The translations under genes and the position numbers were made by a program. From Escherichia coli (GTDB lineage: Bacteria > Pseudomonadota > Gammaproteobacteria > Enterobacterales > Enterobacteriaceae), in NCBI RefSeq assembly GCF_036507355.1, contig NZ_AP027877.1: a stretch of 64,000 nt of DNA. One strand, given 5' to 3'. Each line of letters starts with the position of its first letter. Within the stretch, counting starts at the first letter, position 1. The notes beneath the pieces are model-generated. The model had not been told where the DNA came from. It did no database searches and was given only the letters and a program-made list of their open reading frames with translations. Shown here piece after piece: positions 6,290 to 62,610 of the stretch.

Positions 6290-6372
6290 AATAGTGTCGG
6301 ATGCCTGGCGTTGTCCAAGATTGCGTAGGCCGAATAAGGCGTTCACGCCGCATCCGGCAAAATGCCCAATAC
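6290..6372. repeat. REP (repetitive extragenic palindromic) element
   Basis: gccggatgcggcgtgaacgccttattcggcctac-type palindromic unit between uppP and cca. Confidence 0.7.
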
Positions 6373-14182: not shown

Positions 14183-14261
14183 CCGGAAAGCGGTTCACAG
14201 ATCTCGCTTCGTACATGGCAGGCCTATTGACGCTGTTGTTTTTTCAACCTAGAGTAAAGGA

Positions 14262-14410
14262 ACAAGGGTAAGGGAGGATTTCTCCCCCCTCTGATGAGTT
14301 GTTAGTAAGTCGGGAAACTTAACAGTAACAACACAACCAGTATGATGACGAGCTTCATCATAACCCTTTCCTTCTATAAGGCCCCTTCCTCGGGAGGGGC
14401 TTTCCCGTTT
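14262..14410 (+). ncRNA. sibE: Sib-family antisense sRNA (antitoxin), copy proximal to hldE
   Basis: Promoter TTGACG(14227-32)-17 bp-TAGAGT(14250-55); terminator hairpin gcccctTcc/ggaggggc + U-tract at 14380-14410; fully antisense to the ibs ORF; ends approximate; D/E naming by synteny only. Confidence 0.7.
14302..14361 (-). CDS. ibsE: Ibs-family type I toxin, 19 aa (MMKLVIILVVLLLLSFPTY)
   Basis: Hand-translated minus-strand ORF, ATG 14361 to TAA 14302-04; hydrophobic 19-mer typical of Ibs; below ORF-track size cut-off. Confidence 0.75.
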   Translation of the reverse strand: MMKLVIILVVLLLLSFPTY

Positions 14411-14637
14411 CAGCCCCTTGCTGTCTCCCCGATTGTTGATGAGCGCCGGACCCCGCGCAACGCTTTCCCTGAAGCAGTTTTGCCTTCCCCGAGCGGTCAC
14501 GCAAAACGCTGCAACGTCCTGAGCATTTGCACCTTTTAGCGGAACGCAGATATAAAAAATCCCCGGCTTTTTGGGCCAGGGATATGTGTTAATGAAACCT
14601 TCTTGACGCTGATTTTTTTTCAACCTAAAGTAAAGGA

Positions 14638-14786
14638 ACAAGGGTGAGGGAGGATTTCTCCCCCCTCTGATTGGCTGTTAATAAGCTGCGAAACTTACGA
14701 GTAACAACACAATCAGTATGATGACGAGCTTCATCATAACCCTTTCCTTCTGTAAGGCCCCTTCCTCGGGAGGGGCTTTCCCGTTT
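14638..14786 (+). ncRNA. sibD: Sib-family antisense sRNA (antitoxin), copy proximal to yqiK
   Basis: Promoter TTGACG(14603-08)-17 bp-TAAAGT(14626-31); same terminator hairpin at 14756-14786; antisense to second ibs ORF. Confidence 0.7.
14678..14737 (-). CDS. ibsD: Ibs-family type I toxin, 19 aa (MMKLVIILIVLLLVSFAAY)
   Basis: Hand-translated minus-strand ORF, ATG 14737 to TAA 14678-80; paralog of the copy at 14302..14361. Confidence 0.75.
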   Translation of the reverse strand: MMKLVIILIVLLLVSFAAY

Positions 14787-16637: not shown

Positions 16638-17298
16638 TATTAAATTTCCTTTTGATTAATAAATTACAATATTTGGGGCCAGGGATTGTTTTCCGCCAAA
16701 TATCGCGTTGCAGAAAGTCGGCAAATAATTAACACTTTGTCTCCTTTAGTGAAAATTTTTCCTTCTTCAGGCTCCAGTAGTAAATAATGTATTTGGCCAA
16801 ATTGATCGGTGAGTTTTCCTTCGCAGGGATTACCTGAAGTGGCTTGATGACCGGTAATTAATGCCATGCTACCAATATATTCTTCTTCTGTAATAGCTGA
16901 ACTATGGTCGCGTGGAATCCAGGGCGCAACTATTTTACCGGTATAATGCACCGCAATAATCGTAAACAGTAAACTGACAGGAACCACGAACAGGTTCGAC
17001 AGTGGTGATTGCCAGACCATGATGCAGGCATGCTGCAACAGGATGCCAATAAGACCAAAAAAACCAGCCAGCAAGCAGAGAACGACGAGAGCTGGCAATC
17101 TTCCGATATTGAGATAATGAAGTGCCTGGCTAATATGACCTGTGGTTATGGAATCATAATGGTCAAGATGTGCATCAAGAGCACCGGAGAGCATGTGACC
17201 GCAGATAAGCGCTAAAATTTCTAAAAGGCCGATCAACAGTACAGGTGATGCTGCCAACTTACTGATTTAGTGTATGATGGTGTTTTTGAGGTGCTCCA

Positions 17299-17574
17299 GT
17301 GGCTTCTGTTTCTATCAGCTGTCCCTCCTGTTCAGCTACTGACGGGGTGGTGCGTAACGGCAAAAGCACCGCCGGACATCAGCGCTATCTCTGCTCTCAC
17401 TGCCGTAAAACATGGCAACTGCAGTTCACTTACACCGCTTCTCAACCCGGTACGCACCAGAAAATCATTGATATGGCCATGAATGGCGTTGGATGCCGGG
17501 CAACAGCCCGCATTATGGGCGTTGGCCTCAACACGATTTTACGTCACTTAAAAAACTCAGGCCGCAGTCGGTAA
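17299..17574 (+). CDS. insA: IS1 InsA (transposition repressor, zinc-finger/HTH)
   Basis: 91 aa, [40 protein letters not shown]... Confidence 0.95.
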
Positions 17575-17996
17575 CCTCGCGCATACAGCCGGGCAGTGAC
17601 GTCATCGTCTGCGCGGAAATGGACGAACAGTGGGGCTATGTCGGGGCTAAATCGCGCCAGCGCTGGCTGTTTTACGCGTATGACAGGCTCCGGAAGACGG
17701 TTGTTGCGCACGTATTCGGTGAACGCACGATGGCGACGCTGGGGCGTCTTATGAGCCTGCTGTCACCCTTTGACGTGGTGATATGGATGACGGATGGCTG
17801 GCCGCTGTATGAATCCCGCCTGAAGGGAAAGCTGCACGTAATCAGCAAGCGATATACGCAGCGAATTGAGCGGCATAACCTGAATCTGAGGCAGCACCTG
17901 GCACGGCTGGGACGGAAGTCGCTGTCGTTCTCAAAATCGGTGGAGCTGCATGACAAAGTCATCGGGCATTATCTGAACATAAAACACTATCAATAA
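17493..17996 (+). CDS. insB: IS1 InsB' frame (made as InsAB' transposase by -1 frameshift)
   Basis: 167-aa ORF in the -1 frame relative to insA; A6C slippery motif at 17550-17556. Confidence 0.9.
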
Positions 17997-18339
17997 GTTG
18001 GAGTCATTACCAACAGTACAAAGGAAATAGCGAAAAGATAAGGGGTATTATAGTCGGCGAATAAAATCATATGTCACTCCAATGTCCATTTAGTGACGCA
18101 ATATTTACTTTGGGATAGTTTCCTTGCTTGCATTTATCTTTGTTAATAATAACATATGTTAGAGAAGTTCTGGAAGAGAAAGTCTTTTAATATGGTTTTT
18201 TTATTTTTCACTAAAAAGTGTGATCGGGGACAATATATTTACGCACGTTATGTTTAAAGGCACTACACTGATTGGGGAATACTGAAATCAGAAAAAGCAT
18301 ATGGCCTTAAAAGGTATGCGATAACCGGAGGATGTGCTT

Positions 18340-18540
18340 ATGGATCATAGTCTTAATTCTTTAAATAATTTCGATTTCCTGGCGCGTAGTTTTGCCAGAA
18401 TGCACGCAGAAGGTCGCCCGGTCGATATTCTGGCCGTTACTGGTAACATGGATGAAGAACATAGAACCTGGTTTTGCGCACGTTATGCCTGGTATTGCCA
18501 ACAGATGATGCAAACCAGAGAACTTGAATTAGAACACTGA
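18340..18540 (+). CDS. glgS: GlgS (surface composition regulator, formerly glycogen synthesis protein)
   Basis: ORF 18334..18540; start at ATG 18340 gives the 66-aa [27 protein letters not shown]... protein. Confidence 0.9.
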
Positions 18541-18574
18541 TATGACGGGCCGTCTGGCCCGTTTTTGTGTTGCT
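18541..18574. terminator. Terminator hairpin between convergent glgS and ubiK
   Basis: cgggccgtctggcccg stem-loop followed by TTTTTG. Confidence 0.6.
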
Positions 18575-18874
18575 TTATTCTGCTTTATCAATAGGCGGGA
18601 TAGCCGGAGGAGATTGAAGATCTGCTATCGAATTATTGCGCGCTTCCAGTTCACTGATGCGCTGCTCCAGTAACGCCAGTTTTTCACGAGTCCGTAACAG
18701 GACTTGCGTCTGTACGTCGAATTCTTCGCGGCTCACCAGATCGAGACGCGTCAGCTGCGCTTGTAGGGTTTGGCGGATTTTTTTCTCCACATCTTCCCCG
18801 AACTCCCTGATTCCTTTAGGCATTGATTCGTGAACCTGGCGAGCGATTTGCTCAATTTTTTTCGGGTCAATCAT
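18575..18874 (-). CDS. ubiK: Ubiquinone biosynthesis accessory factor UbiK (YqiC)
   Basis: ORF 18575..18934; start at ATG 18874 ([21 protein letters not shown]...), coiled-coil BMFP family. Confidence 0.85.
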
Positions 18875-18989
18875 TGTAGTTTCCCTGTACTGATAGGTGT
18901 TGAGTGCCATTGTAGTGCGATAAGGGTAAGTCATAAACCAGAATTATGTGAAGCTATGCGTTGCTGCCGCTAATCATTAGCGTTATAGT

Positions 18990-19247
18990 GAATCCGCTTA
19001 TTCTCAGGGCGGGGCGAAATTCCCCACCGGCGGTAAATCAACTCAGTTGAAAGCCCGCGAGCGCTTTGGGTGCGAACTCAAAGGACAGCAGATCCGGTGT
19101 AATTCCGGGGCCGACGGTTAGAGTCCGGATGGGAGAGAGTAACGATTCTGTCGGGCATGGACCCGCTCACGTTATTTTGGCTATATGCCGCCACTCCTAA
19201 GACTGCCCTGATTCTGGTAACCATAATTTTAGTGAGGTTTTTTTACC
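18990..19247 (+). promoter_or_regulatory. ribB 5' leader with FMN riboswitch (RFN element / sroG)
   Basis: Conserved RFN segments aggGCGGGGCGAAATTCCCCACCGGCGGTAAA ... GCCCGCGAGCGC ... CAGCAGATCCGGTGTAATTCCGGGGCCGACGGT ... AGTCCGGATGGGAGAGAG directly upstream of ribB; ends approximate. Confidence 0.8.
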
Positions 19248-19901
19248 ATGAATCAGACGCTACTTTCCTCTTTTGGTACGCCTTTCGAACGTGTTGAAAA
19301 TGCACTGGCTGCGCTGCGTGAAGGACGCGGTGTAATGGTGCTTGATGATGAAGACCGTGAAAACGAAGGTGATATGATCTTCCCGGCAGAAACCATGACT
19401 GTTGAGCAGATGGCGCTGACCATTCGCCACGGTAGCGGTATTGTTTGCCTGTGCATTACTGAAGATCGCCGTAAACAACTCGATCTGCCAATGATGGTAG
19501 AAAATAACACCAGCGCCTATGGCACCGGTTTTACCGTGACCATTGAAGCGGCTGAAGGTGTGACTACCGGTGTTTCTGCCGCTGACCGTATTACGACCGT
19601 TCGCGCAGCGATTGCCGATGGCGCAAAACCTTCTGATCTGAATCGCCCGGGCCACGTTTTCCCACTCCGCGCTCAGGCTGGTGGTGTACTGACGCGTGGC
19701 GGTCATACTGAAGCAACTATTGATCTAATGACGCTGGCAGGCTTCAAACCGGCTGGTGTGCTGTGTGAGCTGACTAATGACGATGGCACGATGGCGCGTG
19801 CACCAGAGTGTATTGAGTTTGCCAATAAACACAATATGGCGCTCGTGACTATTGAAGACCTGGTGGCATACCGTCAGGCACATGAGCGTAAAGCCAGCTG
19901 A
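19248..19901 (+). CDS. ribB: 3,4-dihydroxy-2-butanone 4-phosphate synthase
   Basis: 217 aa, [10 protein letters not shown] signature motif. Confidence 0.93.
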
Positions 19902-19933
19902 AAACCGCTGCTTAATTTACTGCCTTAATCAAG

Positions 19934-19970
19934 AAACCGAAGTTGTAGCAGGCTTCGGTTTTTATTTTTC
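19934..19970 (+). terminator. ribB intrinsic terminator
   Basis: aaaccgaag/cttcggttt hairpin followed by T-run. Confidence 0.7.
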
Positions 19971-20162
19971 CCTGCTATGCAAGATGTTAATTCCGCTTCT
20001 CTTTCTATGAGAAAATTTCATTAATATCAGGCATTCTTTTTCATTATGATCAAAATCATATAATTGTTCCGTTATTATGCGACCATATGAATATATCCGA
20101 AAAAGGATATGTGAAATTTATGCGCTAAATGTTTAGTATTGTTAAATATTAAGGGTAAAAGG

Positions 20163-31184: not shown

Positions 31185-31293
31185 TTTTTAACCTCAAGGT
31201 GAGACGTTTGCCGACTATAGTACGTCACAGAGCGGTACGGTGAAATTAGCAAAATGTGCAAAGTCTTTTGCGAATTTAGCAAAAGTCTTACCC

Positions 31294-32643
31294 TTACCAG
31301 CTTACTTTCGCCTCAAATCCACCTTGTTCCGCATTCCCAAACTCAACATTCATGCCATGCAGCTTGGCGATTCGCTGGACAATCGATAGCCCAAGTCCAC
31401 TGCCGGTAGCGGTTTGTCCGGGTGGGCGATAGAAGCGTTCGCCAATTCGCGCTAGTGCCTCTGGCGTCACACCGGGGCCGTTATCCCTCACGATGAAATT
31501 ATCGGCATTCAGCGTGACGTCTACCACGCTGCCCTGTGGACTGTAGCGCACGGCGTTATCCAGCAAATTTCGCACCAACAAACTTAGCAATAGCGGTTGC
31601 CCGGTGCGTTTGATGCTGTGGGCATTTAGTGTCAGTCGCACGTCAATTTTCGCCTGCTGCGCCGTGTGGTAAATATCCATCACCGACGATTGCAGGAGAT
31701 CTTCAAGCGGGATCTCCGCGACGTCCTGAAGGTTATCCAGTGAGTCCAGCCGCGATAGCGTGAGCAGTTGATCAACCAGACGAGTAGCGCGATCGATCCC
31801 GGAATGTAATTGGAGCAGTGCTTTTTTCCGCGCCTGCGGATCATCGTCAGAGAGCTGCGCAACTTCGGTTTGCACTTTCAGCGCCGTTAACGGGCTACGA
31901 AGTTCGTGAGCTGCGTCAGAGGTAAAGCGTCGTTCACGAACCATCATCGCATGTGTGCGGGCGAACAGTTGATTTAGCGACTCAACCAGTGGTCGCACTT
32001 CGCTGGGTACGCCAGTCGCGTTTAGTGGTTTTTCCGAGTCAGGGTCACGCATACGTAGTGCCAGCGCCAGTTTGTTCAGCGGCGCGAGTTCACGACCCAG
32101 TAGTACCATCATGATGATTAACATAATCGGCAGTGCGACCAACCACGGGATCAATTGCCCGGCAACAATCGCCAGCGCCATGTCTTCACGGTATTCCCAT
32201 TCCTGACCAACAACGATGCGATATTTGCCATCAGGTGAGGTCATCCAGACAAAACGCCATTGATCTTTATCGCCCACCAGTTGCCCGTCAGCAAAACCTT
32301 CCCGTTGATAGCTATAGGGAATATCTTCTCCGTTATCGCCATCGTTAAGGACCATTCTGCCGTCGTGGGTAAAGATGGCAAAGGTCAGCGCATCGTCATC
32401 AACATGACCGTGTTTTAATTTATTTGGCGTCTGTGCCATGCGATCCGCCGCGTTGATTTCGTTGAGATCGAGCGTACTTAACCGCTTGGCAAACAGCATC
32501 AGTTGGGTGTCGAACAATTCATCGACGTTATCCGTTGTTTGTTTCCAGGCGACAAAGCTGGAAAGCAGCCAGGTCACCGAGGCCAGAATTAAAAAGATTA
32601 GCGTCAGCCTGACGCGCAGACTAAGACGTTGGGTAAATTTCAT
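31294..32643 (-). CDS. qseC: Two-component sensor histidine kinase QseC
   Basis: 449 aa; two TM helices, H-box AHELRSPL, HATPase domain. Confidence 0.92.
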
Positions 32644-34378: not shown

Positions 34379-34486
34379 TGGGGAATCTTTACCGGAGTGT
34401 GAGCCAAATCACTCGCGATAAGTTTGAGCGAACAATGCCACAGGCGTATTGTTGTTGGGCTTATAATTTCTCCGGTAAGGAATACC

Positions 34487-45582: not shown

Positions 45583-45686
45583 ACGTTCCTCCTTTATATG
45601 AACTCACCGGAGCAGGCTCCGGTGAGGTGTTGTGAACTTAAGTCTGGACGAAATGCCCGAAAACGAAAGTTTGAGGCGTAAAAAGC

Positions 45687-51396: not shown

Positions 51397-51615
51397 GCCT
51401 GATGCGCTACGCTCATCAGGCCTACAAAATCTATTGCAACATGTTGAATCTTCGTGCGTTTGTAGGCCGGATAAGGCGTTCACGCCGCATCCGGCATTAG
51501 GTGCTCAATGCCTGATGCGCTACGCTTATCAGGCCTACAAAATCTATTGCAACATGTTGAATCTTCATGCGTTTGTAGGCGGATAAGGCGTTTTCGCCAC
51601 ATCAGGTAAGAGTGA
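51397..51615. repeat. BIME-type REP cluster: two tandem ~113-bp units
   Basis: gcctgatgcgctacgctYatcaggcctacaaaatctattgcaacatgttgaatcttcRtgcgtttgtaggc... repeated at 51397 and 51510. Confidence 0.85.
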
Positions 51616-62499: not shown

Positions 62500-62610
62500 C
62501 TTTCGTAGGTCTGATAAGACGCGGCAGCGTCGCATCAGGCATTGTGCTCGATTGCCGGATGCGGCGTGAACGCCTTATCCGGCCTGGATGGCTTGCTGCG
62601 ACGAACGCTA
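62500..62610. repeat. REP element(s) between hybG and yghU
   Basis: gtaggtctgataagacgcggcagcgtcgcatcaggc and gccggatgcggcgtgaacgccttatccggcc palindromic units. Confidence 0.75.

Follow-up and report, generated by a model that had tools for sequence, protein, structure and literature searches.

The window, by which we mean the whole 64,000-nucleotide stretch of Escherichia coli DNA that was analysed, carries ribB, the gene for 3,4-dihydroxy-2-butanone-4-phosphate synthase, behind a long leader, and ubiK, glgS and yqiJ lie upstream of it (Table 1). The deduced RibB protein is identical to that of E. coli K-12 in 217 of 217 residues. As a hairpin of the intrinsic terminator type follows the coding region, ribB can be regarded as a single-gene unit.

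When the published first transcribed base is set at 18996, residues G149, C175, G176 and U181 of PMC11571811 fall onto G19144, C19170, G19171 and U19176 of the window, and the 282-nt construct used in that study (the riboswitch plus the first 10 codons) ends exactly at codon 10 of the ribB gene considered here. Taking this position as the transcription start, the untranslated leader comprises 252 nt (18996-19247). A putative sigma-70 promoter was picked by eye, working back from the published +1; it would consist of the -35 hexamer TTGCTG (18961-18966), a spacer of 17 nt, and the -10 hexamer TATAGT (18984-18989), which ends 7 nt upstream of +1. A consensus promoter scan of positions 18500-20100 did not list a promoter for ribB, since TTGCTG matches the consensus at three of six positions only. 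An open reading frame of 46 codons (19157-19297) that might have represented a leader peptide was discarded, since the related leaders do not conserve its ATG.

Between about 18745 and 19260, from inside ubiK through the start of ribB, all bases that can be aligned to K-12 MG1655 are identical, so that promoter region, aptamer, expression platform and start codon agree to 100% with this reference strain. A 421-nt query around the element was recovered with at least 99% identity from 5425 of 5426 complete E. coli genomes, in many of them with 100%, and the PGAP annotation of the matching E. coli loci reads 'riboswitch', followed by ribB.

Table 1. Features of the ribB locus in the window and the evidence on which their placement relies. 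Positions preceded by a plus sign count from the published transcription start.
Feature	Position	Strand	Evidence
Putative sigma-70 promoter of ribB	18961-18989	+	read from the sequence
ribB leader, +1 of the published numbering	18996	+	residue mapping to PMC11571811
FMN aptamer (RFN element), stems P1-P6	18996-19144	+	RF00050, fold, covariation
P1 5' strand UUAUUCUC, +3 to +10	18998-19005	+	Rfam alignment, folds
P1 3' strand GAGAGUAA (19135-19142) and anti*-P1 5' strand (19136-19144)	19135-19144	+	Rfam alignment, MFE, PMC11571811
C-rich, G-poor tract (C/G up to 2.0), candidate Rho-loading region, +161 to +230	19156-19225	+	composition
anti*-P1 3' strand CGUUAUUUU, +175 to +183, including the published pause sites +175 and +181	19170-19178	+	MFE; PMC11571811
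Switch strand	19205-19220	+	nascent-chain, full-length and aptamer-enforced folds
Shine-Dalgarno sequence GUGAGG, within the sequestering hairpin (loop and inner helix)	19232-19237	+	sequence, folds
Sequestering stem 3' strand UUACCAUGAAUCAG, with the ribB AUG (19248-19250) and codons 2-3	19243-19256	+	folds
ribB, 3,4-dihydroxy-2-butanone-4-phosphate synthase, regulated gene	19248-19901	+	ORF; PF00926 DHBP_synthase, E = 6e-84
Intrinsic terminator-like hairpin and T-run after ribB	19932-19973	+	terminator scan, 13-pair stem then ATTTTT

The aptamer and its expression platform

A scan of the entire window with Rfam 15 at gathering thresholds placed a match to the FMN family RF00050 at 18996-19144 on the plus strand, with 120.9 bits against a gathering score of 66.2 and E = 1.1e-27. 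This match covers model positions 1-138 of 138 without truncation, and by its score the segment belongs to the family. Folded alone, the aptamer attains the consensus architecture, with P1 and the internal stems, at -50.9 kcal/mol; P1 closes the junction, five further hairpins or stems complete the set of six, and homologues display covariation in this structure. It lies on the same strand as ribB, the start of which follows 104 nt past the end of the aptamer, and hence in the leader of a flavin gene. As relayed by PMC11571811, the crystallised FMN aptamer (Serganov 2009; Vicens 2011) possesses the same six-helix architecture as RF00050; the likeness is one of architecture, as the crystallised RNA is an aptamer-only construct from another organism without the ribB expression platform.

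Downstream of the aptamer, the folds of the leader contain mutually exclusive helices (P1, anti-P1, anti*-P1 and a sequestering stem), in which the strands of P1 compete with the stem that sequesters the Shine-Dalgarno sequence and the AUG. The 5' strand of P1 overlaps the 5' strand of anti-P1 (19004-19010). Duplex calculations assign -8.7 kcal/mol to P1, -8.4 kcal/mol to anti*-P1, -16.3 kcal/mol to anti-P1 and -16.7 kcal/mol to the sequestering stem. P1 is weak and needs the ligand, and the computed energies fit a ligand-tipped competition in which the two strong helices, anti-P1 and the sequestering stem, share one strand.

The anti*-P1 element is a helix of 9 bp that is present in the unconstrained minimum free energy fold; it corresponds to the pairing of residues 141-149 with 175-183, for which tested mutants have provided support (PMC11571811). 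In folds of the nascent RNA extended to +235 and +247, P1 is replaced by a helix between +9-15 and +210-216, that is anti-P1, whose formation consumes the first bases of the sequestering strand. The switch strand is thus predicted to serve two partners: without FMN, its portion GCCCUGA (19205-19211) pairs with 19004-19010, and with FMN bound, its portion CUGAUUCUGGUAA (19208-19220) pairs with 19243-19256. The exact register given here for anti-P1 (19004-19010 with 19205-19211) is a prediction of these models, and the authors of the probing study state that the structures of the expression platform are not fully resolved (PMC11571811).

The sequestering stem of 13 bp, which pairs the AUG and encloses the Shine-Dalgarno sequence, forms in the full-length fold as well as in the fold with an enforced aptamer. 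It still forms, even without P1, when the full 282-nt RNA is folded in the absence of the ligand. In silico, the ON state is consequently no global minimum, and it has to be attained kinetically, in the course of transcription; simple thermodynamic folding fails to reproduce it, for which reason folds at nascent lengths are needed. Unconstrained folding of the whole leader revealed no unusual stability (z = -0.26).

Conservation of the switch among ribB leaders

A pattern scan of 100,044 species genomes for the 3' core of the aptamer, which is conserved, returned at least 120 loci, most of them in unrelated phyla. Among the matches listed, 25 loci have the aptamer directly upstream of a full-length ribB gene, and these stem from Enterobacterales and one Vibrio. 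We aligned 26 ribB leaders, that of the window and those of 25 other species, representing the genera Escherichia, Citrobacter, Enterobacter, Pluralibacter, Pseudescherichia, Pantoea, Serratia, Acerihabitans, Budvicia, Yersinia, Photorhabdus, Providencia, Morganella, Arsenophonus and Vibrio, plus one unclassified Proteobacteria MAG.

Across these 26 leaders the OFF structure is 96% paired, with 15 pairs changed on both sides, an outcome that none of 500 shuffles reached; slid controls of the same test are paired to 35-52%. The covariation resides in two variable hairpins, and most of P1 and of the core stems shows no variation. In the same alignment the sequestering stem is 99.7% paired and almost invariant, anti-P1 is invariant and 100% paired, and anti*-P1 is 85% paired. 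Compensatory changes were found in none of these three helices among the 26 leaders; for the helices of the ON state this is so because they hardly vary at all. Support for the latter thus comes from conservation and from published probing, and not from covariation.

The invariant alignment columns are confined largely to particular segments. Such columns make up 14 of 19 in the switch strand (+209 to +227) and 15 of 17 in the strand with the start codon (+246 to +262); they account for 2 of 59 in the linker that joins the aptamer to the switch strand (+150 to +208) and for 0 of 18 in the loop carrying the Shine-Dalgarno sequence (+228 to +245). Codons 1-3 of ribB (ATG AAT CAG) are invariant at their synonymous sites in 26 of 26 leaders, and later codons vary. 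The switch strand GCCCUG(A/G)UUCUGGUAA is likewise frozen; strand and codons together fall into window 19208-19256 (alignment columns 385-444). The sole substitution in the switch strand, A216 to G in five species, leaves the pairing standard in the anti-P1 helix as well as in the sequestering one. This freezing of the switch strand and of the first three ribB codons at the level of the nucleotide, together with a substitution compatible with both helices, may be a new statement about an otherwise well-studied element.

FMN-dependent control of ribB

The aptamer, the competing helices with their conservation, and the identity with K-12 described above come from the present analysis; FMN binding, Rho dependence and pause sites are taken from the literature on the identical K-12 RNA. 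Joined together, they suggest the following course of events. Transcription would start at 18996, and the six-stem FMN aptamer would form from the first 149 nt. Binding of FMN at a time when RNA polymerase still resides in the expression platform would lock P1, a weak helix (18998-19005 with 19135-19142), and would leave 19208-19220 free to pair with 19243-19256. The sequestering hairpin so formed would bury the AUG and enclose the Shine-Dalgarno sequence, thereby blocking the initiation of translation, and Rho would in addition end transcription inside the leader, as published for the identical sequence. If FMN is absent, the 3' end of the aptamer (19136-19144) would be captured by 19170-19178 to form anti*-P1, and subsequently its 5' end (19004-19010) would be captured by 19205-19211 to form anti-P1. 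The sequestering stem would thereby be deprived of its 5' strand, the ribosome-binding site would stay open, and ribB would be transcribed and translated.

Experiments on the K-12 ribB RNA have revealed that FMN protects P1 and the sequestering stem, with a Kswitch of about 176-206 nM, and that transcription pauses at 175/181 and 247 (PMC11571811). Sensing of FMN is much tighter at the +175 pause (23 nM) and nearly absent at the +247 pause; the published sensing window lasts until about the +175/+181 pauses and is closed by the pause at +247 (PMC11571811). Deletion of the riboswitch derepresses ribB mRNA and causes overproduction of riboflavin (PMC9885008).

We consider the element to be the FMN riboswitch of E. 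coli ribB, also called SroG after its leader RNA, which acts as an OFF switch on riboflavin synthesis. We assign a probability of about 0.97 to this reading, and none of the results speaks against the identification. The likeness to the K-12 riboswitch (SroG, RF00050) extends to every base, to the RibB protein and to the divergent arrangement of ubiK and ribB. Since the leader is base-for-base identical with that of K-12 and the element recurs in 5425 of 5426 genomes, that of the window is the experimentally characterised ribB/SroG riboswitch. A chance resemblance or a decayed, non-functional remnant can be given practically no weight in view of the E-value of 1.1e-27 for the full model, the identity to a functional, tested sequence, and the covariation across genera.

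The first-pass annotation had named an FMN riboswitch in the ribB leader and had stated that the lack of a significant RF00050 match would speak against it; the full-length match, at nearly twice the gathering score, and the base identity with K-12 bear out this designation. Its estimate of a leader of roughly 250 nt agrees with the 252 nt obtained, and its interval, 18990-19247, is essentially right. The start of this interval lies 6 nt upstream of the published first transcribed base, and its end is slightly short, because the regulatory hairpin continues into the coding sequence up to 19256. The element had also been described there as already known, and rightly so, as experiments on FMN binding, control of translation and Rho-dependent termination have been published for the identical K-12 leader (PMC11571811, PMC5499598). 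The ribB riboswitch is known in full detail, and the copy in the window is real but ordinary. It provides FMN feedback control to a gene for an enzyme of riboflavin biosynthesis, and its recognition matters only as a correct annotation. FMN riboswitches have been called prime candidates for antibiotic targets, with roseoflavin and other small molecules cited in this context (PMC11571811).

The way in which bound FMN lowers expression deserves closer consideration. A scan of 18996-19247 for terminators detected no G+C-rich hairpin with a T-run, and this finding, together with the tract in which C exceeds G (19156-19225), is consistent with a Rho-dependent attenuator of the ribB/mgtA type; the tract, including its position, is a candidate rut site on the basis of composition. 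In published data, ribB has a Rho termination score of 3.1, and transcriptional control is lost in a rho R66S mutant (PMC5499598). The switch might instead be purely translational, so that FMN would block ribosome binding only, without direct exposure of a rut site, and the fall in ribB mRNA would arise indirectly through Rho and RNases acting on the untranslated message. Such a mode would suit a leader whose expression platform is conserved best in the stem over the AUG and whose C-rich tract has only a moderate C bias, and the indirect route has been demonstrated for thiM (PMC5499598). We nevertheless regard it as rather unlikely. According to the accounts in PMC5499598 and PMC11571811, citing Hollands et al. 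2012, ribB is an example of direct control of Rho by a riboswitch, with termination sites inside the leader; in naked nascent RNA devoid of ribosomes, FMN raises the accessibility of the region of probe 184 (184-193; 19179-19188) (PMC11571811); and FMN-dependent, Rho-dependent termination in a purified, ribosome-free in vitro transcription system is reported in the literature. The E. coli TPP riboswitches thiM and thiC resemble ribB as translational OFF switches coupled to Rho-dependent termination, and in all of them the ligand can be sensed only during a transcriptional window that ends with a pause close to the start codon (PMC5499598, PMC5234074, PMC11571811). Aptamer and ligand differ, however, and the effect of Rho on thiM is described as an indirect one via the translation block, whereas a direct exposure of the rut site is described for ribB (PMC5499598).

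An attenuator with an intrinsic terminator and antiterminator, as in the ribD (ribDEAHT) leader of Bacillus subtilis, is very improbable for ribB. The two riboswitches share the aptamer family, the ligand and the role of an OFF switch for riboflavin synthesis, and ribD, like ribB, is described as sensing FMN kinetically during transcription with the assistance of pausing (PMC11571811). Moreover, a run of seven U residues (19239-19245) follows a small A/U-rich hairpin in the ribB leader. Yet this hairpin attains only about -1 kcal/mol and offers no G+C-rich stem, and an intrinsic terminator at the U7 run was rejected on these grounds, in line with the negative terminator scan and with the statement that E. 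coli riboswitches use no intrinsic terminators (PMC11571811). The ribD switch operates by intrinsic termination and antitermination, whereas that of ribB probably combines sequestration of the Shine-Dalgarno sequence and AUG with Rho.

The name sroG, under which the leader appears as a small RNA in strains and plasmids of the literature, invites the thought that a stand-alone RNA acting in trans is the main product of the locus and the effect on ribB in cis a secondary one. Early termination would indeed free a stable, structured RNA of about 150-250 nt. The papers retrieved name no target and no phenotype in trans, however; removal of the element has exactly the effect expected in cis, a rise in ribB mRNA and riboflavin (PMC9885008), and the conserved positions lie chiefly in the strands engaged in pairing with the start codon of ribB. 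Hence, we see hardly any prospect for SroG as primarily a trans-acting RNA. Some riboswitch-derived RNAs in other bacteria have been shown to act in trans. For the terminated leader SroG, the additional role of a regulatory or FMN-buffering RNA, beyond that of a by-product of the cis-acting ribB riboswitch, is only slightly less doubtful.

Surroundings of ribB in the window

The IS1 element upstream of ribB is a complete copy of 768 bp (17244-18011) flanked by the 9-bp direct repeat AACAGTACA at 17235-17243 and 18012-18020. It represents a simple insertion in the 5' end of yqiJ on the minus strand, the remaining open reading frame of which (16664-17257) now starts at TTG, and it lies 985 bp upstream of the ribB +1, with glgS and ubiK in between. 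The layout yqiJ-IS1-glgS-ubiK-ribB, at a length match of at least 80%, occurs in 8 of 5426 complete E. coli genomes and is therefore rare.

The fimbrial cluster ygiL-yqiG(IS2)-yqiH-yqiI, which occupies about 6.6 kb in K-12, is absent between glgS and ubiK. The junction maps to about 18571-18644, and a distance of 34 bp separates the stop codons of glgS (18540) and ubiK (18575). Towards its 3' end (18575-18745, minus strand), ubiK diverges from K-12: the protein has 99 instead of 96 amino acids and shares 82 of 94 aligned residues with its K-12 counterpart, and the differences are all C-terminal, within the last 17 or so aligned residues. To judge from the sequence, this looks like a recombination boundary adjoining the fimbrial-cluster polymorphism. 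The 5' two-thirds of ubiK and the ubiK-ribB intergenic region are identical to K-12.

The first-pass annotation had remarked on the nearby IS1 and on a missing fimbrial operon, and had held the leader to be unaffected by either. The operon is indeed absent, but not as a peculiarity of this strain: glgS and ubiK are directly joined in 2060 of 5426 complete genomes, O157:H7 included, so that we are dealing with a common natural allele rather than a strain-specific deletion. That the leader has remained intact is confirmed by its identity with K-12 at every aligned base of the segment from about 18745 to 19260. It is the wider neighbourhood alone that differs from K-12 (ygiL-yqiGHI absent beyond ubiK, the 3' end of ubiK, and IS1 in yqiJ), and none of these differences comes within 250 bp of the ribB promoter. 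As the IS1 element and the fimbrial polymorphism leave promoter, aptamer and expression platform untouched, the regulation of ribB in this strain should equal that in K-12.

At a greater distance, the window and K-12 differ at several further places. Around 34380-34386, about 0.93 kb of K-12 (3167819-3168747) is missing; because this segment holds the toxin-antitoxin pair mqsR-mqsA, the strain appears to be without mqsRA. Around 31288-31294, about 0.59 kb of K-12 (3171833-3172426), with ygiZ, is absent. At a small discontinuity (6325-6360), a segment of about 57 bp that lies between cca and bacA in K-12 (3203176-3203233) is left unaligned.

The Rfam scan also located other small RNAs. Two tandem Sib antitoxin RNAs (RF00113, 141 and 148 bits) lie on the plus strand at 14227-14376 and 14603-14752; the pair corresponds to sibD/sibE, with ibs toxin reading frames opposite as in K-12, each RNA being about 91% identical to the K-12 counterpart of the other. 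Matches above the gathering score were further obtained for the small RNA ES173 (45621-45684, minus strand, 99 bits) and twice for naRNA4 (51465-51535, plus strand, 68 bits, and 62508-62584, minus strand, 85 bits).
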